The notes: a model not told the origin generated them from the letters alone. Shown: positions 4,049-32,710, numbered from the stretch's first letter. The stretch: 32,710 nt of DNA from Candidatus Firestoneibacteriota bacterium (GCA_038042445.1 JBBTED010000011.1:1-32710), one strand, 5' to 3'. Translations and numbers: made by a program.

Positions 4049-4056
4049 TTTTCGTT

Positions 4057-4674: not shown

Positions 4675-4682
4675 AAATTCTA

Positions 4683-7263: not shown

Positions 7264-7282
7264 ATATTATTTTCTTTGTAGT

Positions 7283-7352
7283 GGTAGTCGCAAGCTTTAG
7301 CTTGCGGTATTGTTTTTCACCGTTTTTTCGCAGGCTAAAGCCTGCGACTACC
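7283..7352. repeat. REP-like doublet, family D (GTAG foot)
   Basis: ggtagtcgcaagctttagcttgcg ... cgcaggctaaagcctgcgactacc; the two arms differ by compensatory changes. Confidence 0.9.
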
Positions 7353-7384
7353 TTTGCAACACAGTCTGAATAACACCTTCGACG

Positions 7385-8275
7385 TCATCTGTCTCGGCTT
7401 AAAACAAAATCTGCCAATGCAACCAGCACTTTAGCACGATTCCCAAAGATTTTAAGACTTGCCTTTGCTTTTTCTATCAATTCTATTGCTTGCTGTTTAG
7501 AATCTTTAAGCCCTAAAACTGATGGATAAGTTGCTTTTTTCTTTTTAATATCACTACCGAGTTTTTTGCCTAATTTTTTTTCATCTCCTGTTATATCAAG
7601 AATATCATCTATTATCTGAAAAGCCAAACCAAAATATTCAGCATATAAAGACAAAGCTTTTATTTCTTTCTCTGATGCATTAGCTAAAATCGCTCCTGAT
7701 TTAATTGAAGCGCAAATTAAAGCAGCTGTTTTATGTGTATGTATATATTGTAAAGTTGGAATATCTATTTCTTTATTTTCAGATTGCATATCAACTACTT
7801 GACCTCCTATCATACCACCAACACCTGCAGCAAAGGAAATCTCTCTTATAGCACGTATCAAATTTTCTTTACTGACTCCATCCGCTTTATAATTATTTGT
7901 TATTAAAAAAAATGCGTATGTTAAAAGTGCGTCACCTGCTAATGTTGCTATTGCTTCTCCATAAACTTTATGTGATGTAAGCTGTCCCCTTCTATAATCA
8001 TCATCATCCATACAAGGCAAATCGTCATGAATTAAAGAATATGAATGAATAAGTTCCATAGCACAAGCTGTAGGAAGAATGTGTTTTATCTTTTTTGTAA
8101 ATATCTGAGTACTTGCCAAAACCAGTATTGGTCTTAATCTCTTACCGCCTGCAAAAACACTATATCGTATTGCCTGATGAATTTTTTGCGGGAACTCTTT
8201 TTCAGATGGCAAAAATTTATCCAATGCTTTATCTATTATTTTTTTTTGTGATTTTAAATATTTCTCTATATCCAT
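7385..8275 (-). CDS. ispA: Polyprenyl (farnesyl/geranylgeranyl) diphosphate synthase
   Basis: GGKRLRP, HDDLPCMDDDDYRRG, FQIIDDILD, KATYP. Confidence 0.95.
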   Translation of the reverse strand: MDIEKYLKSQKKIIDKALDKFLPSEKEFPQKIHQAIRYSVFAGGKRLRPILVLASTQIFTKKIKHILPTACAMELIHSYSLIHDDLPCMDDDDYRRGQLTSHKVYGEAIATLAGDALLTYAFFLITNNYKADGVSKENLIRAIREISFAAGVGGMIGGQVVDMQSENKEIDIPTLQYIHTHKTAALICASIKSGAILANASEKEIKALSLYAEYFGLAFQIIDDILDITGDEKKLGKKLGSDIKKKKATYPSVLGLKDSKQQAIELIEKAKASLKIFGNRAKVLVALADFVLSRDR

Positions 8276-8278
8276 AGG

Positions 8279-8536
8279 CTAAAAGAGTGTGCTATTATTA
8301 TTTTTCCCTTGTTCTTTTTCTTCAAAAGGAACTGTAGTAAATTTGCCATTTTTATCTTTTACTAAAAGCTCTACTTTTTTCTCTACTTCCTCAAGCTTCT
8401 GAAAACAGACTTTAGTAAGCCTAACTCCTTCTTCAAATAATTTCAGTGATTCATCAAGCGGCAAATTACCATCTTCTAATTTTGAAACTATTTCTTCCAA
8501 TCTTTTCAACCCATCTTCAAATTTTAACTCTGCCAT
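8279..8536 (-). CDS. xseB: Exodeoxyribonuclease VII small subunit
   Basis: FE..L..LEEIV..LE.G.LPL.ESL..FEEG; GGAGG RBS; upstream of ispA. Confidence 0.95.
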   Translation of the reverse strand: MAELKFEDGLKRLEEIVSKLEDGNLPLDESLKLFEEGVRLTKVCFQKLEEVEKKVELLVKDKNGKFTTVPFEEKEQGKNNNSTLF

Positions 8537-8564
8537 ATTAAAACCTCCTAATCACTCTCCGTTT

Positions 8565-8623
8565 TGTCATACTGAATTTACTTCAACATCTCTTTTAGAC
8601 CCTGAAACAAGTTCAGGGTGACA
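8565..8623. repeat. REP-like doublet, family E (TGTCA foot)
   Basis: tgtcatactgaatttacttcaacatct ... agaccctgaaacaagttcagggtgaca; left arm degenerate. Confidence 0.8.
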
Positions 8624-8689
8624 ATATTCTTTCATACTACTTTTGACAGCACCTCAAATTATACATCAAAATTTACCAAATACAACCAT

Positions 8690-9802
8690 TTATCGTGAAG
8701 ATTTGGCTTTTTCCCATGTTATATATCTTTTTCCTATAAACATATCCCAGACACCAAGAGAAGCAGCCATATTTACAGCACAGAAATAATAAGGAATACG
8801 TAGTTTTAAAAATGCCAAAAAATAGAACACGATTTGCAATACAAAAATAACAGAGTAAAAAACAGATGACAGAAGAAAAATATTTGCTATAAAAATTAAA
8901 AACAGAAAATAACTTATTAGCCACCTTAAAAATTTGTGCGATGTCAATTGCCACAAAACAAACACAGGAAGTTTGTAGAAAATTCTTGTGTATGCAAGAG
9001 AATCTCTTGCAGCTATTCTTCTTTTCCTATTAAATTCTTCTTTTAATATTGTAGATGTTTTCTCATACGCTATTGCATCTTCTTCATATATAACTTTATA
9101 TCCCTTAGCTAAAATTGAAAGCGGCATTGTAAAATCATCGGCAAGATCAATATCAACAGATTGATATAATTCCCTGCGAATTGCATAAATAGTTCCAGCA
9201 CCCATTAAAAGCGACCCCTGTTGGCTTTCTAATTTTTTTATCACATTTTCATATTTCCAATACAAACCCTCACCCTTACTAACTCCAGTCTCATCTACAT
9301 TTGTAAGCTTTAGATTTCCACATACACAACCTACATTTTTATCCTCAAATCTGCTTGTCAATTTTTTAATTGCATTTCTGTCATACACAGAATTTGCATC
9401 AGAAAAAATAATTATGTCAGTTTTAATCTCTGGAAAAACAGAATTTAATGCAGAAGTTTTTCCACCTCTTTCTTTTATTGCAAATAATTTTATACCTTTA
9501 CCCTCATAAGATTTAACAATTTTTTCTGTATTATCTGTAGAAGCATCTGATATTATAATTATCTCTAATTTATTTTTAGGATAATCCAAAGCTAAAGAAT
9601 TTTTTAGTTTATTTTCAATATTTTTTTCTTCATTATATGCCACAATAAGCAAAGACACATTAGGCAAAAAATCATTATTTGATGATATTTTCTTATCTGC
9701 ATAACTTTTTTTGAATATACCAATTAAAAAAAGTATACAGGGATACCCCAAGTAAACATACAAAACCACACCCAAACTCACCCAAAATACAATTTTAGCC
9801 AT
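8690..9802 (-). CDS. Glycosyltransferase family 2 (PgaC/IcaA-like), membrane-bound
   Basis: AYNEE, SDASTD, FSDAN, ADDF, flanking hydrophobic segments. Confidence 0.9.
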   Translation of the reverse strand: MAKIVFWVSLGVVLYVYLGYPCILFLIGIFKKSYADKKISSNNDFLPNVSLLIVAYNEEKNIENKLKNSLALDYPKNKLEIIIISDASTDNTEKIVKSYEGKGIKLFAIKERGGKTSALNSVFPEIKTDIIIFSDANSVYDRNAIKKLTSRFEDKNVGCVCGNLKLTNVDETGVSKGEGLYWKYENVIKKLESQQGSLLMGAGTIYAIRRELYQSVDIDLADDFTMPLSILAKGYKVIYEEDAIAYEKTSTILKEEFNRKRRIAARDSLAYTRIFYKLPVFVLWQLTSHKFLRWLISYFLFLIFIANIFLLSSVFYSVIFVLQIVFYFLAFLKLRIPYYFCAVNMAASLGVWDMFIGKRYITWEKAKSSR

Positions 9803-9807
9803 AATAT

Positions 9808-10701
9808 TTACATCTTTACTATTAAAGATACTATATGCGAATTACCTAAATCTTGATATGTTTTAAAACTGTAATCTAAATTAAATTTATTAAGTTCAAA
9901 TCCTATACCACCTGTAATTCCTGAAATAGTTCCTAAATCATTTCCTGAAAATTTATATTTATAACCACCTCGCAAAGAAAATATCTGCATTAGCTTATAT
10001 TCACATCCAAAATTCAAATTCGGCTGAATATCTCTTGGCACACTTAAATCCAGTACAAAATTAAATTGCCCTTGTGTATATCCAAATCCTGTTTTCGCAA
10101 TTAACGGTAATTTACTACCAGCAAATGATGGACCTATATTATTAACACTTACTCCATAAGACAAACCCTCTATAGCTAATTTTAAGAGTATTCCACCATC
10201 AAAAGCAAGCCCAAACTTAGAATCAGTATCTATGCGTTCATAAGGAATTTTAGCATTTATGCCTAATGAAAAATTTTTAAAAATATTTTTTGCGTATGTC
10301 AGTTGTCCAACAAATGCATAAGGTTTGAAATTTCCGTTAAAAACTCCGGTATCATCTCTTCTTTCCAAATCGCCAAAACTCATATATGTAAATGCAAACC
10401 CAATACCACCATCATAAAATGGAAATGCAACCGCAATATTTTCATAACGTAACCCTTGTATAAACTCATTATGCCCAAAAGCAAATTGAACTTCATTCAA
10501 ATAAGAAATACCTGCAGGATTCCAGAATAAACTGTTTATATCTCCAGAAACTCCCGTATAAGCCTCACCTAAAGCAGCAGGCCGTGAACCAAACCCTGTT
10601 CTCAAATAAGCAGCACCCGTCTGTGCAATTTTAGTGTTTTCAGCATAACTAAAAATAGCTGAACACAATAAAAACACTACAACTAATACTCTAACCTTCA
10701 T
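9808..10701 (-). CDS. PorV/PorQ-like (UPF0164) outer-membrane beta-barrel protein
   Basis: Signal peptide, GSRPAALGEAY, FWNPAG, alternating beta-strand pattern, LRGGY, LDYS, LGNSH. Confidence 0.82.
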   Translation of the reverse strand: MKVRVLVVVFLLCSAIFSYAENTKIAQTGAAYLRTGFGSRPAALGEAYTGVSGDINSLFWNPAGISYLNEVQFAFGHNEFIQGLRYENIAVAFPFYDGGIGFAFTYMSFGDLERRDDTGVFNGNFKPYAFVGQLTYAKNIFKNFSLGINAKIPYERIDTDSKFGLAFDGGILLKLAIEGLSYGVSVNNIGPSFAGSKLPLIAKTGFGYTQGQFNFVLDLSVPRDIQPNLNFGCEYKLMQIFSLRGGYKYKFSGNDLGTISGITGGIGFELNKFNLDYSFKTYQDLGNSHIVSLIVKM

Positions 10702-10715
10702 ACTTACCCCTTTCT

Positions 10716-10758
10716 AATTCCCCCTTAATCCCCCTTTAATAAAGGGGGTAGGGGGGAT
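10716..10758. repeat. C/G-run palindrome, family F
   Basis: aattcccccttaatccccctttaataaagggggtaggggggat; near-identical copy at 27326. Confidence 0.88.
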
Positions 10759-10763
10759 CTTAT

Positions 10764-11762
10764 TTAAAAATACGCAAGCAACGAAAATCGGTGCATATCT
10801 CCTAAAGCGTTATTATCAAGTGTCCAAGAGTAATCAAATTGATAATGTCCATATTTAAGACTTGCACCTGCTGAAAAATTTAAATCATTTAAACCTGATC
10901 GAACTGCAAAATATTCATTTATCCAGTATTCGCTTCCTATATGTGTAATAATTTTTTGTTTTAAGGTTTGCTCTATATCAAAAGACAAAAGAAATACTTC
11001 ATAAATAAAATATTGCATAACACCAAAACGGAATGTAGGAAGTATTAAATCGCGTTTACCAGTATTCCAAAGTAATCCGGTATTTAAATCTTGTACTGTA
11101 ATTCCAAAACGTGTGAATGAAAATATTTGAAACAATATACCAAAATCACTTCCAATACCCCATGCCTTATATCCACCCAATCGCTGATCATAATACTTAA
11201 TATTCATACCCGCATTTAAATTGTATCCTATGTTTTTACCATACGAAACAATAACAGTATTCTCAAGATTATCAATATTTAATAGCTGATTTCCATCTTC
11301 GTCTCTTGATTCTATCTGACCAATTCTAAAGTGATACCAGCTTATTCCAAAACTTCCCCAATCTTCTTTTAGTTGCTGAGTTACACTTAAAAAACCATAA
11401 GTTCTATCAAAAGAAATTTTACTGAACATACTTGAAACCTGAACTTCGTCCGGATCCGGCACACCAAGACCTGCAGGATTCCAGTAAGTAGCAGTTGCAT
11501 CATCTGCTATAGCTACAAATGCATTACCCATTCCAGATGGACGCGCACCAACTCCTTTTTTCAAATACGGCATACTACTTTTTGCCATCCCAATATCATC
11601 TGCAAAAAGTGAACAAGAACAGAAAAAAAATAAAATACCACAAAGAGTCATTCTGAGCAAAGCGAAAAATCTAAAAATAAAAAACCATGATTTAAAAATA
11701 AATTTCCTTGCAACTCTGGATTCCCGCTTTCGCGGGAATGACAAAAAAAATAAGTATGCCAT
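10764..11762 (-). CDS. PorV/PorQ-like (UPF0164) outer-membrane beta-barrel protein; start 11762 or 11651
   Basis: GVGARPSGMGNAFVAIADDATATYWNPAGL, FDYS, C-terminal aromatic F. Confidence 0.85.
   Translation of the reverse strand: MAYLFFLSFPRKRESRVARKFIFKSWFFIFRFFALLRMTLCGILFFFCSCSLFADDIGMAKSSMPYLKKGVGARPSGMGNAFVAIADDATATYWNPAGLGVPDPDEVQVSSMFSKISFDRTYGFLSVTQQLKEDWGSFGISWYHFRIGQIESRDEDGNQLLNIDNLENTVIVSYGKNIGYNLNAGMNIKYYDQRLGGYKAWGIGSDFGILFQIFSFTRFGITVQDLNTGLLWNTGKRDLILPTFRFGVMQYFIYEVFLLSFDIEQTLKQKIITHIGSEYWINEYFAVRSGLNDLNFSAGASLKYGHYQFDYSWTLDNNALGDMHRFSLLAYF
11647..11672. repeat. REP-like unit, family H
   Basis: gtcattctgagcaaagcgaaaaatct, translated RFFALLRMT on the minus strand. Confidence 0.78.
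11716..11742. repeat. REP-like unit, family C (ATTCCC-N8-GGGAAT core)
   Basis: ctggattcccgctttcgcgggaatgac, translated SFPRKRES; related copies at 18515, 18559, 23959, 24558. Confidence 0.88.
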
Positions 11763-11768
11763 TTTACG

Positions 11769-13478
11769 TTATCGTATTATTGCCAATTTTTTGATAGGAT
11801 ATTTTGCTAAGGAATTTGTACTGCTTGACTTAAATGCTATTTGATAAATATAGATTCCCTGTGCTACATCGTTGATATCCCAGTATGTTTCCTGAAAATT
11901 TCCCCCGGATTTATATTCAGAAAAAGTAGCAATTCTATCACCATTCACATTATAAACATTTATCACAACTTCAGAAGTATCAGGAACATAATACAAAAAA
12001 GTTATTTTACTACCTTTAGCAGGATTAGGATAACTTGCCACCTCATTTAAACTTATAAGAGGCTCTGCCTTAAAAATATCTGCCAATGTCAGAAGACTAT
12101 TATCTATATTAAAATTATCTATATTAAAAATAAACGGCTTATAACCTTTTGCTGTTATCTTCAGCTGATAATTCCCAAATGGTATACTATTAAATTCATA
12201 TCTGCCTTCACTATCAGTTTTTGCAGATGCTATTACTTTTTGATTTTGAAGAAGTTGAATTAATGCATCGGATAATGGTATTTTATTTGAAGGATTTTTT
12301 AAAACTCCTGAGATTGCACCTTTGGTTAAAATTTTTATACTATATCTTGAAACTGAACTTTTGTTTTCTGCATTATCCATAGTTGCAACATAAAAATACC
12401 ATTCGCCATCATCAAGATTAGAATATTGCACCTGACTTTCAGATGTGAACTGCCAGTTATCAGTATCAAAACTACTACTTACAGATTTACTTAAAAAATA
12501 ATAGTATCCTGCTATTCCTGTTCCACCTGCTTCACCGACATTTTCATCACTGCTTTCCACCAATTTAAAAGAAGGATTAATATTACTGGAAAGTTTTGTT
12601 TCTATATGTGTTGCAGATTGTATTACCGGCGGTTTTGGCGGAGTTGCATCAGAAAGAGCAACAGTCTGATTATTACCGTTACTTTGCTCATTGCCTGAAC
12701 CATCAACAACCTGAATTGTATAATAATATTTTTTGCCATTTATCAAATTATTTGAAGTATCTACATACTTTTCATCTGTAATTTCTCCATCATTAGTTAT
12801 ACATCCACCTTTTTCACCAAGTGTAGTTGCCCTGTATATCCTGTAAAAAGAAGCACCGGAAATTTTTTTCCATGTGAGTAAAATTCTTCCTGAACTCTTT
12901 GATTTTGCAACAGCATTATCAACTGAACTACTCAAGGATTTAGAAAGTGCTGATACAATAATATTGCCTTCATTACATTCATTACCTCCAATGTCAATCG
13001 CCTGTATTTTATAATAATAAGTAACGCCATAGATTAAACCGGTATTATCAGTATAATTGTTAACATCAAGTTCAGCAATTGCAATCTTTGAAAACTCATT
13101 TTTCTTGGTAGAACGATATATTTTGTATTTATCCACAAAACTACCTTCATCTATAATAACCTGCCATTCCAAATTGATTCCACCAATATCTGTAGCTAAA
13201 GCATTTAAAACAGAAACTGGAGCAGGAGAAAGATTATCAGGATTAATAGTTTTAAAATATCCACTACCGATTTTATAATTACTACTTGTAGTATTTCCAA
13301 TTATTGCAACACCACTCACACCTTCTAATTTATAAGATGGAGAAGTCATCACTGCCCTACCGCCTTCATCCCCCTCCCACACATTTATATAATGATCACC
13401 TTTTACTTTAGCCATAGCTCCCGGCAAAAAACATACAAAACAAACACATATAATACTAAATCCCAATAATTTCTTCAC
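11769..13478 (-). CDS. Exported multidomain protein: two FN3-like repeats, Ig-like domain, carboxypeptidase-regulatory-like domain, T9SS/FlgD-like C-terminal domain
   Basis: Signal peptide; repeated YxIYR...YxD...YYYxIQxxD..GNE; TDSEGRYEF; C-terminal SYPNP...INVYNVNG...WD...GIYIY. Confidence 0.75.
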   Translation of the reverse strand: MKKLLGFSIICVCFVCFLPGAMAKVKGDHYINVWEGDEGGRAVMTSPSYKLEGVSGVAIIGNTTSSNYKIGSGYFKTINPDNLSPAPVSVLNALATDIGGINLEWQVIIDEGSFVDKYKIYRSTKKNEFSKIAIAELDVNNYTDNTGLIYGVTYYYKIQAIDIGGNECNEGNIIVSALSKSLSSSVDNAVAKSKSSGRILLTWKKISGASFYRIYRATTLGEKGGCITNDGEITDEKYVDTSNNLINGKKYYYTIQVVDGSGNEQSNGNNQTVALSDATPPKPPVIQSATHIETKLSSNINPSFKLVESSDENVGEAGGTGIAGYYYFLSKSVSSSFDTDNWQFTSESQVQYSNLDDGEWYFYVATMDNAENKSSVSRYSIKILTKGAISGVLKNPSNKIPLSDALIQLLQNQKVIASAKTDSEGRYEFNSIPFGNYQLKITAKGYKPFIFNIDNFNIDNSLLTLADIFKAEPLISLNEVASYPNPAKGSKITFLYYVPDTSEVVINVYNVNGDRIATFSEYKSGGNFQETYWDINDVAQGIYIYQIAFKSSSTNSLAKYPIKKLAIIR

Positions 13479-16356: not shown

Positions 16357-17622
16357 TCATGCCCCCTTGATAAAGGGGGGTAGGGGGGATTTTATTTTTA
16401 TAATTTTATACACCCCATACACTGCAAAAATCAAAACATACGGCATAATTGGCAAATGATACCGTGGCACTACAAGAAACACTGTATGCGCAAAAGTATA
16501 ATAAAATATAATCGCAACTAACAACATACTAAGTTTATTTTTACACATTCCAAAATACATACCTATACCACCAAATATTAAAATAATAATATGCGGAATC
16601 ATAATAATTTTACTTAATAAAGATAATCCTTTTTCTGCGATAAAACCACTACCTACAGGAAAAATCCAAAATCTATACATTTTTTTTAATCCTAGCAAAA
16701 AAGTTCCCCAAGGATTTTGGATAATATTTTTTATGCCCTCACGAAGCAATATTTCATCAGCATCTATACCATAATAACCTTTAGTTATAGTATTCATAGT
16801 ATTTGTAAATTCCTCACGTGATACTTTGTTAGTCCAAACATCCCAATAACCATCATAAGGAATATAATTGCCACCCCAAAGATTTTGCCCCACTCTTGTC
16901 ATTACAGGAATAAATTTTTTAAATGCAACATCGTTTCTAATTGTCCAAGGAACTATAGTTAGAATTGACAAAATAAATACCAGCAATATTTTCATCAATA
17001 TAACTTTCTTAAATACCAAATCTTTTTTGAACAAATTATATAAATATATAATTGCTATTAAAAAAATAGGAAACAAAATTGTAGTTGTTCTACATAAACT
17101 GGTAAAACCTAAGCTTATGCCACTTAAAATCATCCATAACCAGAATTTATCTGCTTTAAAAACCTGTATTAAGCAAAACATAGAAAATAATAACAAAAAT
17201 ATAAACAATGTTTCTGTATATATCATCCCAGTATAAATTATAAAAGAAGGATATAGTGCAAAAAGAAAACTTGATGCTATAGCAATTTTTTCAGTATAAT
17301 TCGCATTTTCTGTAATTTCAAAAATTGCTTTGCTTATTTTATATACAAGGAAACATGATAAAACACTTATAAGAACCTGAAACATTCTAACTGCTAAATA
17401 ACTATGCCCAAAAATCTTATATATGGTAGCAATTAGATATGGATAAACAGGGCCTCTTATTGCTGTAGGATTACAAGAATCCATAGAAAAACCATTTCCC
17501 TGAACAATATTTACCGCTATAGTATCGTATTCAAAAGCATCCCCCACTATATCCTGCGGCACCAACACTACAGCATAAAAAAGCCGAATTATAAACCCTA
17601 TAATTAAAACAAAATATAGCAT
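16357..17622 (-). CDS. ArnT/PMT-like membrane glycosyltransferase, tandem paralog of 14991..16352
   Basis: GDAFEY, RGPVYP, TETLF, PWTIRN, GNYIPYDGYW, PRYHLPIMPY shared with the neighbour. Confidence 0.8.
   Translation of the reverse strand: MLYFVLIIGFIIRLFYAVVLVPQDIVGDAFEYDTIAVNIVQGNGFSMDSCNPTAIRGPVYPYLIATIYKIFGHSYLAVRMFQVLISVLSCFLVYKISKAIFEITENANYTEKIAIASSFLFALYPSFIIYTGMIYTETLFIFLLLFSMFCLIQVFKADKFWLWMILSGISLGFTSLCRTTTILFPIFLIAIIYLYNLFKKDLVFKKVILMKILLVFILSILTIVPWTIRNDVAFKKFIPVMTRVGQNLWGGNYIPYDGYWDVWTNKVSREEFTNTMNTITKGYYGIDADEILLREGIKNIIQNPWGTFLLGLKKMYRFWIFPVGSGFIAEKGLSLLSKIIMIPHIIILIFGGIGMYFGMCKNKLSMLLVAIIFYYTFAHTVFLVVPRYHLPIMPYVLIFAVYGVYKIIKIKSPLPPFIKGA
16362..16390. repeat. Family F palindrome overlapping a CDS 3' end
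   Basis: cccccttgataaaggggggtaggggggat, translated SPLPPFIKG. Confidence 0.85.
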
Positions 17623-17636
17623 AATTTTTTATCTAT

Positions 17637-17676
17637 AATTCCCCCTACCCCTTTATTAAAGGGGTAGGGGGGAATT
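17637..17676. repeat. Family F palindrome
   Basis: aattccccctacccctttattaaaggggtaggggggaatt, near-perfect hairpin. Confidence 0.88.
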
Positions 17677-19911: not shown

Positions 19912-20134
19912 ACTGCATACCTCTCGTAAAAATGACAATTATAAAGTAAAAATATTTTTTAATAATACTACAATCGTCTAAATAAGTAAATATGCAAATT
20001 ATATTTAGTGCCATTCAGTATATATGTTCCCTTCTTCTTTTATTGGATGATTTTCTATATATTTAGCTTTTTCAAAAAAATCATCTTGATTTCTAATTAC
20101 ATAATCATAAAATGATCTTTGCCATACGTTTTCA

Positions 20135-20157
20135 CGTAGGGGCGGGTTTACCCGCCC
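20135..20157. repeat. Family B REP inside the RAYT CDS
   Basis: cgtaggggcgggtttacccgccc, translated GRVNPPLR. Confidence 0.92.
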
Positions 20158-20455
20158 ATTAAATATTGTCTGTGTTGTTTTTACTTTTGCTTTTGCTATA
20201 TATTCCCACAAATTTATTGTCTTTTTCTCAGGCAAAGTAATGAGTCCATGAATATGATTATTTGCAACAACAATAGCATTTATAGACACTTTTAATTCAT
20301 CTGCAAGAGTTTTAAATATCTCAATAATTTTATTTCGTATTGTTTGAAATATGAAAATTTCTTTTCGTTTAAATGTACAAATTGTAAAAAAATATGGACC
20401 TATTAAATAATAATCCCAAATTTTTAATCTTAAAGTGTTTCTTCTACAATAATTT

Positions 20456-20503
20456 GGGCGAGATTGCCTGCCCTCTTTTTGGGCGGGTAAACCCGCCCCT
20501 ACG
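20456..20503. repeat. Family B REP plus degenerate partner at the RAYT 5' end
   Basis: gggcgagattgcctgccc ... gggcgggtaaacccgcccctacg, translated VGAGLPAQKEGRQSRP. Confidence 0.88.
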
Positions 20504-20533
20504 CGTACATACTTCATTTCTTCATACATATAT

Positions 20534-22222
20534 TCATCTTATTATAATCATTGGTTTTACGGACTCGCTGGACTCGCCTGTTTCAGCAATTTTGGCTTTG
20601 ATTCTGAAAAAGTATACGCCGTTTACCCAGTCTGAAACATTTAGGCCGGAAAATTGGTTTATTCCTATTTTACCGTTTTCCTCGATGGTTACTATTTTAT
20701 CACCAACTGCATTAAAAAATTCTATTGTAATAGCGGCATCTTTTTCTAAAAAATATCTGATTACTGGTTTATCATTTTTAATTGGATTTGGCTGGCACCA
20801 AACCTGATCTAATGGGACTAAACTTGTGTTTTCAACTACTATTTTATAATTTGCTGTTTCACTCCAGTTATCCATTTTATCCGCAGATTTTACGTGCAAA
20901 TACCATACTCCATTTTTAGTGTTTGGAAAATCTGCGGACACAACTTCAGGAGAATAAACAGCTATAGAAAGAGGACTTCCTTGTGGATTTTGGTCAAAAG
21001 TATAATTATAGCCAGCAAGGCCTACTCCACCTGTATTATCTACGCTACTCCATTTAAAATATGGATAATTATTTGTTGTCAAAATACCCTCTTTATGAGT
21101 AGTGCTGGTTATCACAGGTTTAGATGGCAAAAATGCATCTAAATGAATATAAAAAATTTGCCCACTGCTTGCATCTTTAAAACATAGATGCACATTCTTG
21201 TAAAATGTTTTTAATGACGGCATTGTAGCATTCGGAAATATTGAAATTTCCTGTTCTGCTGCCCAACTAACTCCATCATCTGAGCTTTGCGAATAATATA
21301 CTTTGTAACCACCTGTTCGGTTATCCGCCCATGCTAAATAAATTATTCCATCTGAATCTACTGCAACATTTTGATATAAAGCCTGACCTATCGCATTTCC
21401 TGATATTGTTTTCTCCTGTATCCAAGTGCTATAGTATCTTTTGAAATATATTTTATTATCCTGCTGCCATACAACATCAACATCATTTTTTAGTCCAACT
21501 GTAATTTTTGGTTTTGTAGAACCAGTAGTAGAACTTGATATAACTGATGCACTACTTAATTTTGACGAAGATATAACCAAACTTTTAAAAATAATTTGAT
21601 AAACACCGGTTAATTTTTCCTGCCATACAAAATACACATTATTATTATCACTTGTTAAAGATGGGTTATCAGCATTAGATTCACTTAATGTTTGCTCACT
21701 GGACCAATTCAACCCATAACTAGAACCTTTTTTATAAAAAATTTCAGTGCTACCGGTATCCTGCCATGCAATATATATGGTCCCGAAAATATCTGTACAT
21801 ATTGCCGGATTAGACGCGCCTGTTGGTGAAATACTTATAGGTTGAGTATCACCAAAACTTTTACCGCTATCAGAACTTTTTTTGAAATATATCTGGTCAA
21901 TTCCTGTTCTATCATCCTGCCATACAACATAGATATCGTTTCCATTCGTAGCAATTGCAGAATTTTTTGCCGTAGCAGTTGATAAAGATAATAATGTAGA
22001 AGAATCCCAGCTCAAACCATTATCTGTGCTTTTTCTGAAATATGTTTGAGGGATACCGGAATAAGAATCTGTCCAGGAAAAACATAATAATCCAGCAGGA
22101 GCAGTTGATAAATCTATACTATCAATTAAACCAGTTGAATTAGTTAATTGAAGCCTGTTTGTCCAGCCTGTTAATGAAAAAGACAGAGAAGGAAACAATA
22201 ATAAAAATAATAGTAAAAACAA
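20534..22222 (-). CDS. Exported BNR/Asp-box repeat (sialidase-like propeller) protein with Ig-like and T9SS-like C-terminal domains; start uncertain
   Basis: Asp-boxes STDNGLSW, SSDSGKSF, SSDDGVSW; repeated YVVWQD/YIAWQD; C-terminal QPNP...GVYFFRI. Confidence 0.75.
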   Translation of the reverse strand: MFLLLFLLLFPSLSFSLTGWTNRLQLTNSTGLIDSIDLSTAPAGLLCFSWTDSYSGIPQTYFRKSTDNGLSWDSSTLLSLSTATAKNSAIATNGNDIYVVWQDDRTGIDQIYFKKSSDSGKSFGDTQPISISPTGASNPAICTDIFGTIYIAWQDTGSTEIFYKKGSSYGLNWSSEQTLSESNADNPSLTSDNNNVYFVWQEKLTGVYQIIFKSLVISSSKLSSASVISSSTTGSTKPKITVGLKNDVDVVWQQDNKIYFKRYYSTWIQEKTISGNAIGQALYQNVAVDSDGIIYLAWADNRTGGYKVYYSQSSDDGVSWAAEQEISIFPNATMPSLKTFYKNVHLCFKDASSGQIFYIHLDAFLPSKPVITSTTHKEGILTTNNYPYFKWSSVDNTGGVGLAGYNYTFDQNPQGSPLSIAVYSPEVVSADFPNTKNGVWYLHVKSADKMDNWSETANYKIVVENTSLVPLDQVWCQPNPIKNDKPVIRYFLEKDAAITIEFFNAVGDKIVTIEENGKIGINQFSGLNVSDWVNGVYFFRIKAKIAETGESSESVKPMIIIR

Positions 22223-22261: not shown

Positions 22262-22334
22262 GCCGATAAATCGGCAACTACAAATCCCCCTCGACCCATC
22301 TTTTCGATGGGTACCCCGCCCTTTATCAAAGGGG
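22262..22334. repeat. Family A unit followed by an interrupted family F unit
   Basis: gccgataaatcggcaactaca, then aatccccct[cg-acccatcttttcgatgggt]accccgccctttatcaaagggg. Confidence 0.82.
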
Positions 22335-22341
22335 ATACTAC

Positions 22342-23347: not shown

Positions 23348-23424
23348 TGGTGCGGCTGAGAGGACTTGAACCTCCAGCCTTTTGATTCGAAGTCAACGGC
23401 TCTATCCAATTGAGCTACAGCCGC
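23348..23424 (-). tRNA. tRNA-Arg(TCG), CCA encoded
   Basis: Acceptor stem GCGGCTG/CAGCCGC, D-arm AGCTCAATTGGATAGAGC, anticodon loop CTTCGAA, T-arm GGTTCAAGTCC, 3' ACCA. Confidence 0.95.
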
Positions 23425-24077: not shown

Positions 24078-24521
24078 ATGAAATACTCGGAAGGGAAAAT
24101 TAACAGGGTTTTCGTAATCAGGTTAGAAGACAAGGATAAACTACCTGATGTTATTGAATCATTTTGCCAGAAGAATAAAATACTGCGCGCAATGTGTATA
24201 TTAGTGGGTGGAATAAATACCGGAGGCAAATTAGTTGTAGGTCCTAAAAATGGGCTTCAAATGCCACCTGAACCTTTAAGTTACACACTAAAAGGAGTTC
24301 ACGAAATCTCTGCAGTAGGAACTATATTCCCGGATAGCAAAGGAAAACCGCGACTTCATATGCATGCTGCACTCGGCAGAAAAGGAAAAACGAAAGCTGG
24401 ATGTATTCGTCTTGGAATAGAAATCTGGAAAATTGGAGAAATTATATTATTTGAAATTTTAAATAATACTGCAAAACGAATAAAAGATAAAGATACAGGT
24501 TTTGAATTTTTAGAACCGTAA
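24078..24521 (+). CDS. PPC/DUF296 domain protein
   Basis: VFVIRLE, HEISAVGTIF, LHMHAALG, AGC..GE; only convincing plus-strand gene. Confidence 0.85.
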   Translation: MKYSEGKINRVFVIRLEDKDKLPDVIESFCQKNKILRAMCILVGGINTGGKLVVGPKNGLQMPPEPLSYTLKGVHEISAVGTIFPDSKGKPRLHMHAALGRKGKTKAGCIRLGIEIWKIGEIILFEILNNTAKRIKDKDTGFEFLEP

Positions 24522-24526
24522 TAAAT

Positions 24527-24614
24527 GCAAGGCTAAAGCCTTGCCCTACATAAAATACTGGATTTCCGTCATTTGTCAGGCAAGATGCCTGACCTATTGC
24601 ATGCAGGAATGACA
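24527..24614. repeat. Cluster between convergent genes: family D unit, then a family C unit interrupted by a third palindrome (family G); may act as terminator
   Basis: gcaaggctaaagccttgccctaca; ctggatttcc...[gtcaggcaagatgcctgacctat]...gcaggaatgaca. Confidence 0.8.
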
Positions 24615-24621
24615 CGGTGTT

Positions 24622-25998
24622 TTACAATAATAGAGCGATTTCTATTAATTGGGCTTCTGTAATGCCTAGATTTTCATAATTATTGTAATAATCTTCTATT
24701 ATTTTTTTGTAATTTGTTGTTTTTATTTTTTCTTCCCGCAATTCTTTTACTTTTTCTAATGCTTTTTGAATAAGTTCAGGAGTTATCTCTTTGCCTTTTT
24801 CTTTTAATATCTTTTCATTTTTCTTTAAAACTTCCTCTACTGCAGATGCACCACTATGCTTGCCAAATACAAATTTTTGTTCGCCACCTACTGTTTCCTC
24901 TCTGATGAATTGATATATTGCCGGATGAATAACTATAGCTGCAGTATGAATACCTGATTCATGGGCAAAAACCCCTTCCCCAATTATTGGCTCATGAGGT
25001 TGTATTGCAATACCTGAATATTTCTCAACTAATTTTCTTAATTCAACTAATTTATCGTATCTAAAACATGGAAGTTCAACACCATATAATTCTTTTAATA
25101 TCATAACAGTCTGATGCAAAGAAACATTGCCAGCACGTTCTCCTATTCCATTTGCTGTAATACCTATATATGTTGCACCATGGTGGACAGCTCGGACAGT
25201 GTTTAAAGCTCCCAAGCCAAAATCATTATGAAAATGAGCAGTCATTGGAACTCCGTCTAAAGCTTTGATCATTTGTGGAATATAAAAATCTACAGATTCC
25301 GGTGTAAAAACACCGCAGGTATCAGAAAAACACATTCTTGTTCCTCCTGCTTTAACACAAGCTTTTGCCCAACGAACTCCATATTCAATATTTCCGCGCG
25401 AAGAATCCTCAGAAGCAAATTCAATACGACTAATTCCTTTGCTTTTTGCATATTTAATAGCATCACATATCATATTTGTATTTGCCTCTCTATAAAATTC
25501 AAGAGGTGTTTCTATCCATTTATCTACGGATTTCCCTTCTCTCTTAAGTAATGTTTTTCCAAGTTTATATTTAATATGCAAATCAGAGAAGGTAGATAAA
25601 ATCAACACACTAACATCATCGGCAGATGCTCCAATTTCTGCCATAGTTTTAACTACAGTATCAATATCATTAAAATTACTCCTGCACATTGCAAGTATTT
25701 CTACATCTTTTCTTATCTCCCCTCTTTTTTGTGCCTGAACAATTAACTGCAAGCCTTTACAATCAGATTCGCCATTTACTGGAAAAGCTACATCCATCAC
25801 ATGAATACCCATAACACTTAATAATTTTGCAATTTCTAATTTTTGCTCAGGACTAAAAGCAACACCAGGCATTTGTTCGCCATCTCTTAAAGTATCATCA
25901 TATATTCTTATGGTAGATGGATCAGGAAATTTAAGATGCTTTGTAAAAACTTTAGGAGACTTTGATAATTCTTCCAATGGTTCAAAAAAGTTAATCAT
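24622..25998 (-). CDS. DRE-TIM metallolyase, 2-isopropylmalate/homocitrate/citramalate synthase family, without LeuA regulatory domain
   Basis: DTLRDGEQMPG, HFHNDFG, NGIGERAGN, FAHESGIH, FGKHSG. Confidence 0.88.
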   Translation of the reverse strand: MINFFEPLEELSKSPKVFTKHLKFPDPSTIRIYDDTLRDGEQMPGVAFSPEQKLEIAKLLSVMGIHVMDVAFPVNGESDCKGLQLIVQAQKRGEIRKDVEILAMCRSNFNDIDTVVKTMAEIGASADDVSVLILSTFSDLHIKYKLGKTLLKREGKSVDKWIETPLEFYREANTNMICDAIKYAKSKGISRIEFASEDSSRGNIEYGVRWAKACVKAGGTRMCFSDTCGVFTPESVDFYIPQMIKALDGVPMTAHFHNDFGLGALNTVRAVHHGATYIGITANGIGERAGNVSLHQTVMILKELYGVELPCFRYDKLVELRKLVEKYSGIAIQPHEPIIGEGVFAHESGIHTAAIVIHPAIYQFIREETVGGEQKFVFGKHSGASAVEEVLKKNEKILKEKGKEITPELIQKALEKVKELREEKIKTTNYKKIIEDYYNNYENLGITEAQLIEIALLL

Positions 25999-25999
25999 A

Positions 26000-27307
26000 T
26001 TATTTCACCAAAGTATAAGTGTTGATTTTTTCTTCAGGAGTTCCCCATTTTTCAAGAGCTAATTTTAATTCTTTTTTCTTTTTTGCCATAGCTTTTAATG
26101 AAATACCTTGTTGAACTGCATCAATTGCCTGATGAAAAGCTTTTGCTCCGGCAATAACTCCCAGAGGATGACCATGCACACCGCCACCTGCGCCTATTAT
26201 TAAATCATTACCTAAATCTTTAATCATTAAATCTACTAACCCGGGATGCACACCTGCTGATGGCACAGGAAAAACTCTTTTTAAATGATAAAATTTACAG
26301 GTTAATTCCTGAGCAATTCTTATAATTCTTTCTTTTACCATCAAAACTTTTCCAAAATAGCTTGGGTATACAACTATATCTGAGCCAGCAAGTCTGGCAA
26401 ATTTTCCAAGAACCAAATTTGACGAAAGCCCATAATAAGGAGAGCCAAACAATGCACCGGCAAAATCAGGATGTGTAAGCAACGGCACATTTATAGACGA
26501 ATCTTCTGCTAAAGCACTTAAAGTAGAATATTGAACAGTATAAGTATTTACCATCAAACAATTTGCGCCATTTTTTACTGCTACTTTTGCTTTTTTCATC
26601 ATCTTATCTAAATTATCAGTTATATTAAGTGCATATAAAACTTTTCGGCCAGTATCTTTGTAAACTTTCTGGCAAGCTTTCATACATTCTTCCAATCTTT
26701 CCTCAACACAACAAAAATCAGGGTCAGCCAATAATTCGTCATCTTTAATTATATCAACTCCACCTACTCCTAATTCATAAAGTAATTTCCCTAAAGTTTT
26801 TGGCGCCATTCCAACACAGGGTTTAAACATTGCAAGCAAAAGCGGACGAGTCTTTATACCCAATAATTTTCTTATCCCTTCAATGCCAAATTTTGGACCT
26901 TTATAATTTCCAACAAAAGAAGGCGGCAAGAATACATCAAGCAGTTTTATTTTGCCTGCCATAGAAATATTTCCGTATAACGCAGTTAAAAGCTGAGGGA
27001 TTTGCCCATTTAAATTTTTTGCAGGAAAAGCTAAAAGAAAAAATACTTTTCTTTCTTTCAAATCTTCTGGAAGCGCATCTTCATAATTTGGCACATCATA
27101 AACCCCTATAACCTTAGCTACATATTTTTCTCTGATTTCCTCTGTTTCTTCAGGCACAGATACCCATGTTCCAGTTGATTGCTCAAGAGCAATTGCTTCT
27201 ACTCTTTTTAAAATATCTTCTGTTTTAGTTTCCATATAATAGAGGCCAACAACATAATCTTCTCTAACTACTTCTTCAGCTATTGTAAAAATTTTTGAAT
27301 CAAGCAT
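26000..27307 (-). CDS. RuBisCO-like protein (form IV RLP)
   Basis: EQSTGTW, GPKFGIEGIR, FKP, DIIKDDE, PVPSAG, GAGGGVHGHP; AAGGAGG RBS; several carboxylase residues substituted. Confidence 0.92.
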   Translation of the reverse strand: MLDSKIFTIAEEVVREDYVVGLYYMETKTEDILKRVEAIALEQSTGTWVSVPEETEEIREKYVAKVIGVYDVPNYEDALPEDLKERKVFFLLAFPAKNLNGQIPQLLTALYGNISMAGKIKLLDVFLPPSFVGNYKGPKFGIEGIRKLLGIKTRPLLLAMFKPCVGMAPKTLGKLLYELGVGGVDIIKDDELLADPDFCCVEERLEECMKACQKVYKDTGRKVLYALNITDNLDKMMKKAKVAVKNGANCLMVNTYTVQYSTLSALAEDSSINVPLLTHPDFAGALFGSPYYGLSSNLVLGKFARLAGSDIVVYPSYFGKVLMVKERIIRIAQELTCKFYHLKRVFPVPSAGVHPGLVDLMIKDLGNDLIIGAGGGVHGHPLGVIAGAKAFHQAIDAVQQGISLKAMAKKKKELKLALEKWGTPEEKINTYTLVK

Positions 27308-27325
27308 TGTTTTCCTCCTTAATTA

Positions 27326-27368
27326 AATTCCCCCTTAATCCCCCTTTAATAAAGGGGGATGGGGGATT
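27326..27368. repeat. Family F palindrome overlapping the cstA 3' end
   Basis: aattcccccttaatccccctttaataaagggggatgggggatt, supplies SPIPLY-stop. Confidence 0.88.
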
Positions 27369-29124
27369 TAATTAATTTAATCCAAGTGGATACTGAATTT
27401 ACAGTAATAATTAATACAAGAATTATCATCAAAAAAGAAAGCCCTACATTCAAATTGCCTTGAAAACTTTTCATTGGGAGATAATTGTCAAAAATATTCA
27501 TTATACCGGCAGTTATAGTAGTTATTAACATAAAAATCATCGGAATAAGAGTAACAAGAGAATATTTCCATCCTTTTCTTCTCATGATATAAGTCGTGCC
27601 AAGAGCAAGAGCTAATGTTGCCAATAATTGATTTGCCAATCCAAACATTGGCCAGATAGTTGATATCTCACCATTATAAAGCATATATCCCCATAAAAAC
27701 GATGTTAAAGCACTTGTAAAAATTACAGCGGGAAGCCAGGTGCTACTACCCAACGGTTTATATATATATTTTGTAATATCCTGAATTATGTAACGTGCCA
27801 CTCGCGTGCCTGTATCAACAGTTGTAAGTATGAATAATGCCTCAAACATTATGACAAAATGGTACCAATATGACATTAATGTTTTCATCCCGGGAAGACT
27901 TGAAAAAATCTGTGCCATACCTACTGCAAGTGATACTGCACCTCCTGTTCTGCCTGCTAAATTTTCACCAACCATTTTTTCAAGTTCCGGAAGATTTCCT
28001 ATAGACATTCCAAGTTTGGCGAAAATTTCAGGCTTTAAATTTATTGCAAAATAATCTCCTGGAATTAAAGCACACGCTGCTATTAATGCCATTAAAGCCA
28101 CTATCCCTTCAACCAACATAGCACCATATCCAATTAACCAAATGTCAGACTCACGACTTATCATTTTAGGAGTAGTGCCAGATCCAATAAGTGAATGAAA
28201 ACCTGATATTGCACCACAGGCAATTGTTATACATACAAATGGCCAAACTTTTCCAGGAATTATCGGACCGCCGCCGGAAATAAATTGCGTTAGTGCAGGA
28301 ACTTGAAGTTTTGGATTAATAACTACTAAACCAACTGCTAACAATAAAATTGTGCCTATTTTCATATATGAACTTAAATAATCACGTGGACATAAAAGCA
28401 ACCAAACAGGTAATACAGAAGCTATAAATCCATAAACCGGAAGCATCAAAGATAATGTTGGCTTTGAAAAAATAAATAACTGCCCAAATGCTGTATGAGA
28501 AATAGGTTCTCCAAAAATAACACCAGCCATAACAATTACAACGCCAAGCACTGATGCCTCAACTATTTTGCCTGGTCTTATTTTATACATATATAACCCT
28601 ACTAACAATGCCGCAGGAATTGTAACTGCAATTGTAAAAGTAGCCCATGCACTTTCACTTAATGCATTTACAACAACCAATGCTAAACCTGATAATGCCG
28701 TAATTATTATAAATAATATTGCGAATGCTGTTGCAATTGATGTAACAGGACCTACTTCTTTTTTTGCAATATGTGTAAGTGATAACCCATCATTTCTCAC
28801 TGATATAAAAAGTATAACTACATCATGAACAGCACCACCTAATACAGCGCCAATAAGAATCCAAAGTAACCCTGGCAAATATCCAAATTGCGCTGCCAAA
28901 ACAGGGCCTACCAAAGGACCTGCTCCTGCTATAGCTGCAAAATGGTGGCCAAAAAGCACCCACTTATTTGTAGGATGATAATCTCTACCATCTCTTAAAG
29001 TATATGCAGGTGTTTTTCGGGAATCATCTATTACTAAAATTTTGGTGATTATGAATTTTGCATAAAAACGGTATGCTAATGCAAAAACCAAACTGACTGT
29101 AATAATTATGGTTAAGGCATGCAT
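27346..29124 (-). CDS. cstA: Carbon starvation protein A family transporter
   Basis: GHHFAAIAGAGPLVGP, PRDYLS, TIACGAISGFHSL, GRTGG, IWPMFGLANQLLA. Confidence 0.95.
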   Translation of the reverse strand: MHALTIIITVSLVFALAYRFYAKFIITKILVIDDSRKTPAYTLRDGRDYHPTNKWVLFGHHFAAIAGAGPLVGPVLAAQFGYLPGLLWILIGAVLGGAVHDVVILFISVRNDGLSLTHIAKKEVGPVTSIATAFAILFIIITALSGLALVVVNALSESAWATFTIAVTIPAALLVGLYMYKIRPGKIVEASVLGVVIVMAGVIFGEPISHTAFGQLFIFSKPTLSLMLPVYGFIASVLPVWLLLCPRDYLSSYMKIGTILLLAVGLVVINPKLQVPALTQFISGGGPIIPGKVWPFVCITIACGAISGFHSLIGSGTTPKMISRESDIWLIGYGAMLVEGIVALMALIAACALIPGDYFAINLKPEIFAKLGMSIGNLPELEKMVGENLAGRTGGAVSLAVGMAQIFSSLPGMKTLMSYWYHFVIMFEALFILTTVDTGTRVARYIIQDITKYIYKPLGSSTWLPAVIFTSALTSFLWGYMLYNGEISTIWPMFGLANQLLATLALALGTTYIMRRKGWKYSLVTLIPMIFMLITTITAGIMNIFDNYLPMKSFQGNLNVGLSFLMIILVLIITVNSVSTWIKLIKSPIPLY

Positions 29125-31952: not shown

Positions 31953-32710
31953 TTAAGCACTTTCTCGAGTCTGATCGAGCCGCTCCCAGCCATCCTTAAA
32001 TCTTCCCACCAGAAATATCAAAAACCGCTCAAAGAAGCGTGTCAATTTATCCAAAACACTTTCGCGTTTTTTGGAACGCTCTCCTCCGGGAGAAAAACGT
32101 GATACAGGCGGCAAAACTTTGACCAGAGCAGTGCCAGTGATTGCAACACTGCCATTACGAAACGCATTCCGCACAAATTTATAGGTTTCGTCGTAATCAA
32201 GATTTTCGTGTTTAATAATTCCTTCCAGTTCCTCAATCTTTTTCTTCTCCACATACTTCTGCCAGTCTTCATCCACCACAGAATGGATATCAAGCGAAGC
32301 GATAAACTGGTTAATAAGATCTTTTTTGTTACGCAGCTCAACGCTTGAATCAATTGCCTTGTTGATATCGACAAGCAGTTCGCGGTTCTTGATGTGGTCT
32401 TCGTGGTACTTTTTAACAAGCCCTAAAATATAATCAATATTGATCTCAATCTGTTTAATGAGCTCCATTTCAAACACGATATCATCATTGATATTTTCCT
32501 TTTCGCCGTCGCCTGCCTTTCGAAACTCGTTATAGAGGTCTATGTAGATACTGTGATAATCCTGAATGTCCCGCTCGGTTAAAATTTCGTTACCGTTAAA
32601 TTCGTCAAAAGTAACCAAAATATTTCTCACACGTAAAATCGCGCCGTAGAGCCTAATGAAATCTTTTTGATTTTGTTCCCCGATAATTCGCTCGCCAACG
32701 GGAAATTTTG
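31953..32710 (-). CDS. hsdR: Type I restriction endonuclease subunit R, C-terminal part (frame open to the window edge)
   Basis: KFPVGERIIGEQNQKDFIRLYGAILRVRNILVTFDEF, QDY.S.Y.DLY, NDDIVFEMELIKQIEINIDYIL, LRNKKDLI, LPPVSRF. Confidence 0.88.
   Translation of the reverse strand, partial: KFPVGERIIGEQNQKDFIRLYGAILRVRNILVTFDEFNGNEILTERDIQDYHSIYIDLYNEFRKAGDGEKENINDDIVFEMELIKQIEINIDYILGLVKKYHEDHIKNRELLVDINKAIDSSVELRNKKDLINQFIASLDIHSVVDEDWQKYVEKKKIEELEGIIKHENLDYDETYKFVRNAFRNGSVAITGTALVKVLPPVSRFSPGGERSKKRESVLDKLTRFFERFLIFLVGRFKDGWERLDQTRESA

Follow-up and report, generated by a model that had tools for sequence, protein, structure and literature searches.

Within a 32,710-nucleotide stretch of DNA from Candidatus Firestoneibacteriota bacterium (GCA_038042445.1, JBBTED010000011.1:1-32710; the whole stretch is referred to as the window), a gene for a form IV RuBisCO-like protein (RLP) is followed after a single base by a gene for a LeuA-family DRE-TIM enzyme (hereafter the synthase). 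The two genes are most likely expressed together and serve one route. We see about an even chance that they form a two-gene module in which the RLP would act on a mono-phosphorylated ketose and the synthase would join acetyl-CoA to a small 2-oxo acid that stems from this ketose. As far as the literature searched shows, neither this pairing nor the signature group of the RLP has been described, both superfamilies being known. The pair comprises the following elements:

26000..27307, minus strand: RLP, form IV, 'N-C-K' signature type (435 aa)
24622..25998, minus strand: LeuA-family DRE-TIM acetyl-CoA:2-oxo-acid condensing enzyme, the synthase (458 aa)
25999..25999, minus strand: single-base spacer (T) between the RLP stop and the synthase start, read from the sequence

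The junction reads GGTGAAATAATATGATT and consists of the RLP stop codon TAA, the base T at position 25999 and the ATG of the synthase, so that the 1 nt gap (TAA-T-ATG) given in the preliminary description of this DNA is confirmed. A GGTGA located 9 nt 5' of this ATG is a possible ribosome-binding site. The gene identities proposed there are right at the superfamily level: Pfam assigned RuBisCO_large (PF00016, 2.4e-49) and RuBisCO_large_N (PF02788, 6.3e-09) to the RLP, and HMGL-like (9.7e-52) and HCS_D2 (1.6e-12) to the synthase. Also in line with that description, Pfam scans of the 29 open reading frames (ORFs) of the window detected no mtnA/B/K/X-type, sugar-kinase or LeuB/C/D-type gene. A predicted complex of the RLP with the synthase scored 0.00 against a mark of 0.32, a value that counts neither for nor against binding.

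An alignment of 58 of the best synthase relatives (A1) was used for a pattern scan of species genomes, which yielded at least 600 pattern matches and at least 586 confirmed relatives. The best 80 loci were kept with up to 10 kb of each flank, and the presence of an RLP was judged by tblastn with the window RLP. At 9/80 of these synthase-anchored loci, an RLP gene lies directly upstream of the synthase gene and on the same strand. Six of them belong to Firestonebacteria (L001-L005 and L016), one to Nitrospirota (L006) and two to Elusimicrobiota, namely Ca. Obscuribacterium magneticum (L022) and a member of Elusimicrobia (L033). With order and strand kept in 9 other loci amid unrelated flanks, the pairing is more than chance. 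Conservation of this kind among unrelated neighbours and in distant phyla usually reflects a functional tie, even if the genes spread as a unit. The preliminary description had made its proposal hinge on whether the pair recurs in other genomes, and it does so in Firestonebacteria, Nitrospirota and Elusimicrobiota.

Identity to the window proteins drops in step for both partners across the linked loci (RLP 74, 68-71, 60, 54 and 54%; synthase 80, 76-78, 69, 63 and 61%). In addition, six RLP and six synthase matches from the protein database agree in the length of the longest contig (53728, 35611 (Omnitrophica), 342140, 9231, 8459 and 26108 bases), which is an indication only, as is the adjacency of P0019/P0134, P0023/P0156, P0025/P0155 and P0022/P0177. 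Another locus (L024, 78% identical) ends at the 5' end of the synthase gene, so that the presence of an RLP there cannot be judged. In L033 the synthase match at 6235-7585 is spread over two frames (6235-7116 and 7118-7585), due to either a frameshift or an assembly error. Full-text searches of the literature gave no text in which an RLP is paired with an enzyme of the LeuA, homocitrate-synthase or DRE-TIM kind, to which subscription papers and unreadable supplements may add; this is in agreement with the earlier remark that no described pathway combining the two enzymes was known to its author.

By its sequence, the RLP is a form IV member of the RuBisCO superfamily, predicted to combine the fold with altered active-site residues. 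It missed the cut-offs of the form III model (277 vs 497.45 bits), the large-subunit model (258 vs 438) and the OiaX model (204.6 vs 700). Its best solved relatives are 2OEK (330.9 bits, residues 21-425) and 2ZVI (295.3 bits), both MtnW enolases, followed by the Chlorobium-type RLP 1YKW (229.6), form III RuBisCOs (about 200-216) and 3QFW (136.1). MtnW/YkrW of the Bacillus-type methionine salvage pathway is thus the closest solved and curated relative. To our knowledge, only a handful of RLPs have known reactions, and each newly solved one revealed an unexpected pathway.

In a census of the window RLP and its 119 best relatives (120 rows), the residues that distinguish it proved nearly invariant: Asn113 and Cys164 are each present in 118/120 and Lys320 in 119/120. 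The carbamate lysine and metal ligands of the KDDE motif are present, and K188, D190, E191 and H279 were found in 120/120. Window Asn113 aligns with Lys98 of Geobacillus kaustophilus MtnW, a residue that Imker et al. reportedly identified in 2007 as the general base of MtnW, and window Lys320 aligns with a serine of the same enzyme. A wider search covered 1.84 billion representatives at 50% identity and gave 413 relatives at E <=1e-30; 98 of the best 150 (385-480 residues) were aligned with the window RLP and ten family members. At the sixteen positions considered, the RuBisCO-type rows read E-T-W-N-K-K-K-D-E-H-R-K-S-G-G-G as is canonical, which validates the position mapping.

In this alignment, all 21 window-type rows carry Glu, Asn and Lys at the positions of RuBisCO E60, N123 and K334 (window E42, N113 and K320), as do the RuBisCO-type representatives (10/10 each), whereas the MtnW-like representatives have Gly (4/4), Lys (4/4) and Ser (3/4; Ser or Asn overall). 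Altogether, the window RLP shares with bona fide RuBisCO of forms II and III the equivalents of E60, T65, W66, N123, K175, K201, D203, E204, H294, K334, S379, G381, G403 and G404. It differs from RuBisCO at K177, R295, H298 and H327, where the RuBisCO-type representatives have K (10/10), R (10/10), H (8/10) and H (9/10) and the window has C164, P280, A283 and V313; Cys at the K177 position occurs in 21/21 window-type rows, and the other three equivalents are lost. With MtnW it has in common the KDDE motif, the K175 and H294 equivalents and the loss of the R295/H298/H327 equivalents, and it differs by N113 (Lys in MtnW), E42 (Gly), K320 (Ser) and C164 (Val/Ile). Judged by these residues, the window-type group is the nearest to true RuBisCO in its catalytic residues of the RLP types among the representatives compared.

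The four replaced residues, together with the missed RuBisCO cut-offs, make carboxylation of ribulose-1,5-bisphosphate unlikely. T65/W66/G381/G403/G404, which we take to form the proximal phosphate site, are retained, and R295/H298/H327, presumably the distal phosphate site, are lost; given these roles, the RLP should bind a mono-phosphorylated ketose. In RuBisCO, the E60-K334 pair and N123 serve CO2 addition. With these equivalents kept, the RLP would hold more of the addition and cleavage apparatus than MtnW does. According to the review literature, RLPs including the 5-methylthioribulose-1-phosphate (MTRu-1-P) isomerases of Rhodospirillum and Chlorobium, the 3-oxo-isoapionate-4-phosphate decarboxylase and the transcarboxylase/hydrolase perform enediolate chemistry on mono-phosphorylated keto sugars. 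The MTRu-1-P isomerases and isoapionate RLPs belong to the same superfamily, but are far more distant from the window RLP (1YKW and 3QFW, scores above), and no LeuA-type partner is described for them in the literature searched.

Taken at face value, the two genes would encode an MtnW-type enolase of 2,3-diketo-5-methylthiopentyl-1-phosphate (DK-MTP-1-P) and a LeuA or CimA. This is hardly probable. The RLP just exceeds the cut-off of the DK-MTP-1-P enolase model NF007095 (417.1 vs 409 bits), its best solved relatives are MtnW enolases and several relatives are so named in their sources. However, it falls below the cut-off of TIGR03332 (364.7 vs 513.6), which was reached by only 2/42 scanned relatives (P0376 and P0383); two more lie just under it, and all four have Lys at the N123 position, which is occupied by Asn113 in the window RLP. 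On NF007095, members of the group to which the window RLP belongs (P0074, P0089, P0113, P0361, L006, L022 and L033) scored 352-434 bits. The cut-off thus falls in the middle of the range of the group, so that the name is given almost at random, and the label is probably over-assigned to window-type RLPs, as far as model scores and residues tell. Furthermore, E42 and K320 are RuBisCO-like rather than MtnW-like, and no mtnX/mtnB/mtnD or mtnA/mtnK company was seen in the 29 window ORFs or in 61/100 ORFs scanned around the related pairs. The synthase, in turn, lacks the LeuA_dimer domain and misses the equivalog cut-offs described below. We therefore regard the RLP, on sequence grounds, as probably not an MtnW orthologue.

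In the RLP tree (74 rows, quick search, modest supports), the MtnW type formed one group (SH-aLRT 88) inside an assemblage (99) which also holds several window-type groups. The window RLP and the four linked RLPs that the tree contained (P0006, P0020, P0038 and P0042) fall into one group of eight rows (SH-aLRT 94). A large form IV group, comprising all but two of the best 120 relatives plus several 50%-identity clusters, is thereby split from the MtnW enolase whose name many of its members carry, and one of its subclades has a fixed partner in a widespread, uncharacterised LeuA-family synthase.

The synthase shows the hallmarks of a Claisen condensing enzyme. DRE-TIM enzymes of this kind are recognized by the Arg-Asp of LRDGEQ, the HxH metal site, GIGERxGN and HESGIH. 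All corresponding residues (R38, D39, E41, Q42, H255, H257 and D259, as well as G286, E287, R288, G290, N291, H346, E347, S348, G349 and H351) are invariant in the 58 aligned sequences, and the condensation machinery looks intact from its sequence. Identity among these 58 sequences is 61-82% and averages 72% per alignment column. The HMGL-like barrel, HCS_D2 and the motifs are shared with LeuA/isopropylmalate, methylthioalkylmalate, citramalate and homocitrate synthases. In contrast to these enzymes, no LeuA_dimer regulatory domain was found in the synthase by Pfam, and all curated cut-offs were missed widely: the best curated subfamily model gave 308.1 bits (cut-off 517), LeuA model TIGR00973 216.9 (598.7), CimA models TIGR00977 and NF042433 163.5 (450) and 131.1 (950), and NifV/LysS models TIGR02660 and TIGR02146 249.6 (462.9) and 235.8 (413.55).

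The best solved match was 6E1J (206.4 bits), which we take to be a methylthioalkylmalate synthase, followed by homocitrate synthase 6KTQ (183.8 bits). Relative to both, a family-specific insertion of about 20 residues follows HLKYKLG. Met104, present in at least 90% of the 58 relatives, aligns with the His of the AHSR motif in 6KTQ, a residue presumed to contact the distal carboxylate of 2-oxoglutarate. C105, C214 and C223 are invariant and C228 nearly so in the 58 members, which could relate to metal binding or oxygen sensitivity. The relatives are named 'hypothetical protein', 'LeuA family protein' or by a COG name, and the ESM Atlas clusters of the synthase only 'putative 2-isopropylmalate synthase' or 'LeuA family'. 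From these comparisons, the synthase is assigned to an uncharacterised LeuA-family clade without the regulatory domain.

The synthase tree (72 rows, i.e. the window and 71 loci, quick search; L023, L024, L025, L033, L037, L046, L061, L067 and L078 were left out owing to short or broken matches) splits into two well-supported halves of 30 and 42 rows. The smaller half, with an unresolved backbone, contains the window, the Firestonebacteria clade, which is entirely RLP-linked, and the linked loci L006 and L022. It also holds eight Nitrospirales loci with a fusion of FAD-oxidase, 4Fe-4S and CCG domains following the synthase, directly or one gene on. Acidobacteriota and Woeseiaceae loci fall here as well, and two of these encode a TIM barrel resembling hydroxypyruvate isomerase just 3' of the synthase (97 bits, well below the cut-off). 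In L006, the most telling locus, the order is RLP, synthase, a GlcD-GlcE fusion (TIGR00387, 612 bits vs cut-off 567.9) and a GlcF-like gene, and in L001-L003 one or two xylose-isomerase-like TIM barrel genes come straight after the synthase. The larger half is mostly made up of Eremiobacterota, and 21 of its rows have an NDH-2-type gene upstream. It also includes Calditrichota-type loci, which carry aconitase-type, Iso_dh, thiolase and enoyl-CoA hydratase genes.

In a group of Streptomyces, Steroidobacteraceae and Patescibacteria, which belongs to the smaller half, family members stand with LeuC/LeuD-type genes in five loci and with an aminotransferase in four. For example, L027 has an aminotransferase, LeuC, LeuD and a LeuB-type dehydrogenase beside the synthase family member. 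L029 (Peribacteraceae, candidate phyla radiation; 1649-9117) carries a canonical LeuA of 588 aa with LeuA_dimer, LeuC and LeuD, and divergent from these lie a DRE-TIM family member and an aminotransferase. Since this locus already holds a canonical LeuA, the family member is a separate paralogue there. A further arrangement was seen in L026 (8407-17533), L028 (both Streptomyces) and L032 (Steroidobacteraceae), where a methyltransferase-like protein, a DRE-TIM member, one or two LeuC-type genes and a radical-SAM gene lie together; an aminotransferase is additionally present in the Streptomyces loci, and a major facilitator superfamily transporter in L026 and L032. To judge by its genes, this biosynthetic-looking cluster may make a chain-extended non-proteinogenic amino acid.

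We propose one route for the pair because of its conserved order and strand in distant phyla and because members of the synthase family are repeatedly placed after makers of 2-oxo acids (GlcD-type oxidases) or before LeuCD/LeuB-type steps. The RLP would enolise a ketose carrying one phosphate, for example a 1-phospho-ketopentose left from the use of S-adenosylmethionine. Unlike MtnW, it may then carry out an addition of the RuBisCO type and split the C2-C3 bond, which would set free a C3 2-hydroxy acid. Either this acid, after oxidation to its 2-oxo form, or a different small 2-oxo acid from the same route would be condensed with acetyl-CoA by the synthase, giving an alkylmalate. Context hints for the step from a 2-hydroxy to a 2-oxo acid come from the GlcD-GlcE/GlcF genes of L006, the eight Nitrospirales FAD-oxidase/CCG fusions and the five LeuC/LeuD-type loci. 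The L006 arrangement resembles the glc-type operons of E. coli, which combine glycolate oxidase with malate synthase, in that an oxidase making a 2-oxo acid adjoins an acetyl-CoA condensing enzyme. It differs from them in that the condensing enzyme is of the DRE-TIM type, and in that it occurs at 1/9 linked loci and not in the window. If the two enzymes act in sequence, they would constitute a new route of salvage or assimilation in uncultured phyla rich in anaerobes, with a new type of reaction in the RuBisCO superfamily. If they do not, the gain is smaller and lies in the correction of a probable over-annotation as DK-MTP-1-P enolase. Together, the results give a short list of candidate substrates.

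A more specific version of the route, which we consider a long shot, places the pair at the centre of a salvage of methionine (or 5'-deoxyadenosine) that needs no oxygen. Here, the RLP would cleave MTRu-1-P, by addition and C2-C3 cleavage, into 3-phosphoglycerate (or phosphoglycolate) and methylthiolactate, and a GlcD-type 2-hydroxyacid oxidase would turn methylthiolactate into methylthiopyruvate. Using acetyl-CoA, the synthase would start to lengthen the chain by one carbon, and steps of the LeuCD/LeuB type would then lead to 4-methylthio-2-oxobutanoate, the keto acid of methionine. In a variant, 5-deoxyribulose-1-phosphate would lead via D-lactate and pyruvate to citramalate. We put this version low because no mtn-type gene was seen near the pairs and because the synthase family also occurs in lineages that we take to be aerobic. 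If true, it would give form IV a carboxylase- or cleavage-type reaction on a monophosphate substrate. It would also explain the methylthiolactate of Rhodospirillum rubrum: RuBisCO-dependent anaerobic use of methylthioadenosine is reported to lead to methylthiolactate in this organism, and RuBisCO may act directly in that conversion (PMC4958253).

Several observations weigh against one shared route. At 71/80 loci, the synthase stands without an RLP in the flanks covered (up to 10 kb on each side), so its role needs no adjacent RLP. With spacers of 1 nt in the window, 17 nt in L033, 20 nt in L006 and 53, 142, 144-147, 176, 194, 200 and 344 nt elsewhere, the pair shows no conserved translational coupling. 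No other gene cluster proved common to all linked loci when their ORFs were clustered and mapped, and the 61/100 flanking ORFs scanned by Pfam contained no common partner, that is, no third conserved gene. Neither mtnA/mtnK/mtnP-type genes nor kinase or phosphatase genes were seen near the pairs, and a 2-hydroxyacid oxidase accompanies only 1/9 linked loci and is absent from the window. The genome of L011 (a chromosome of 2,876,006 bases) has no RLP within 10 kb of the synthase and seems to carry one (P0043, 55% identity) more than 10 kb away. The named taxa of the two families overlap only partly. Within each of the two families, the linked proteins are most closely related to one another, and the pattern could therefore reflect one origin spread by transfer or descent rather than repeated selection. 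Finally, the functions and substrates assigned to the RLP and to the synthase clade are deduced from their sequences.

These points lend weight to an explanation without any pathway link, in which the synthase would be a housekeeping enzyme of the citramalate-, isopropylmalate- or Re-citrate-synthase type, the RLP would serve in an unrelated salvage of sulfur or sugar phosphates, and their adjacency would be inherited or hitch-hiking. We regard this as a substantial possibility, though one less likely to hold than to fail, and give it this weight because of the 71 loci without RLP and the one genome in which both genes seem to lie apart. The long spacers fit it as well. The conservation of the synthase across phyla is typical of core metabolism, and family members occur with a leu-type gene set in L027 and beside a canonical LeuA-LeuC cluster in L029. 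On the other hand, the order and strand of the pair are kept in three phyla with differing flanks, and the genes are tightly packed in the window, L033 and L006. The curated LeuA, CimA and NifV models are all missed, and those cultured relatives with a name that come nearest go by no more than 'LeuA family protein' or 'hypothetical protein'. L029 speaks on this side too, where the canonical LeuA makes the family member a distinct paralogue.

Among the housekeeping activities, that of a Re-citrate synthase (Clostridium kluyveri type) deserves serious consideration for the synthase family, since names of this kind are routinely given to Re-citrate synthases in error. Like the window synthase, they are relatives of LeuA and homocitrate synthase without a curated model, none being present in Pfam or NCBIfam, and some synthase-family loci adjoin aconitase-type and isocitrate/isopropylmalate-dehydrogenase-type genes. 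In a search with L048, a member of Clostridiales, the only named Firmicutes among the best 120 matches were Desulfitobacteriaceae, with no Clostridium. Re-citrate synthases are often mis-annotated as homocitrate or isopropylmalate synthases (PMC12016533; PMC8027424). Weighing both sides, we favour the two-gene module described above.

The preliminary description had also linked the pair, more weakly, to the cstA-family transporter gene upstream. The remaining features around the pair are:

27346..29124, minus strand: cstA-family transporter gene (592 aa; Pfam CstA, E 1.5e-210), upstream neighbour, probably outside the module
27319..27375 (core 27340-27358), minus strand: repetitive extragenic palindromic (REP)-like imperfect palindrome between cstA and the RLP gene, overlapping the cstA stop
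24527..24544, minus strand: terminator-like hairpin with a T-rich tail 3' of the synthase gene, from a consensus scan

On the minus strand, cstA comes first, followed by the RLP and synthase genes. An uptake-and-use operon of all three genes, in which imported pyruvate or a peptide-derived acid would feed the synthase, is very improbable. The shared strand, the 38 nt between the cstA stop and the RLP start, and the lack of a T-run after the intervening palindrome in the terminator consensus scan would suit it. The nearest NCBIfam model is moreover the pyruvate/proton symporter CstA, but its cut-off is missed by far (562.5 vs 1188 bits). A cstA gene is found near 0/9 of the other RLP-linked pairs and at 1/80 loci overall; this sole locus, L031 (Nitrospirota), has it about 6.5 kb upstream of a synthase gene, where no RLP is present. 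The start of the window cstA is overlapped by a comEA-like ORF, and the gene sits in a prs-L25-pth housekeeping string. Membership of cstA in the module was thus rejected on synteny, and the gene is probably an incidental neighbour. Of the candidate new pathway put forward at the outset, the pair itself proved real and conserved, whereas the link to cstA is not conserved; the RLP may, as suggested there, make a 2-oxo compound for the synthase.

The hairpin reported between cstA and the RLP gene is real. It is an imperfect palindrome of 57 nt with a folding energy of -32.4 kcal/mol (z -3.75), which covers the cstA stop codon and ends just short of the AAGGAGG preceding the RLP, a strong stem-loop separating the two genes. 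Allowing for up to 3 mismatches, its 19-nt core, CCCCCTTTATTAAAGGGGG, is found at five places in the window (0 expected), all G/C-clamped palindromes (10730-10748, 16361-16380, 17647-17665, 22317-22335 and 27340-27358). A homologue of the REP-associated tyrosine transposase (RAYT) at 20005-20529 reached 78 bits with a cut-off of 80. We read the palindrome as a REP-like element because of the repeated core and the RAYT homologue nearby. In the Firestonebacteria locus L001, a similar hairpin, CCCCCTTTATTAAGGGGG, lies between the RLP and the synthase (about 9965-9985). Since a hairpin can thus stand inside the gap of the pair, the position of the palindrome says little about operon limits. The idea that the long spacers between RLP and synthase contain a riboswitch or leader RNA was also considered and rejected: the Rfam gathering scan of the window and seven loci (133,620 bases) gave two tRNAs only and no Rfam family in the spacers.

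At the other end of the pair, the hairpin at 24527-24544 has 7 pairs, 5 of them G-C, and the tail ATTTATTACG. It is terminator-like and, judged by its sequence, would close the transcription unit, facing the convergent gene of a PCC/DUF296 protein at 24078-24521. A tRNA-Arg (TCG) lies beyond at 23348-23424. The far edge of the window (31953-32708) holds the C-terminal part of a type I restriction R-subunit running off the end.

Elsewhere in the window, a dxs gene for 1-deoxy-D-xylulose 5-phosphate (DXP) synthase is paired with a polyprenyl synthetase gene (5389-8275), about 19 kb from the RLP and with no apparent linkage to it; DXP synthesis is fed by one known RLP. In addition, 10764-13478 and 20534-22222 encode a PorV-like protein together with two others that bear C-terminal sorting domains of type IX secretion. 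Type IX secretion may be of interest for work on Firestonebacteria, the phylum to which relatives of the RLP and the synthase belong.

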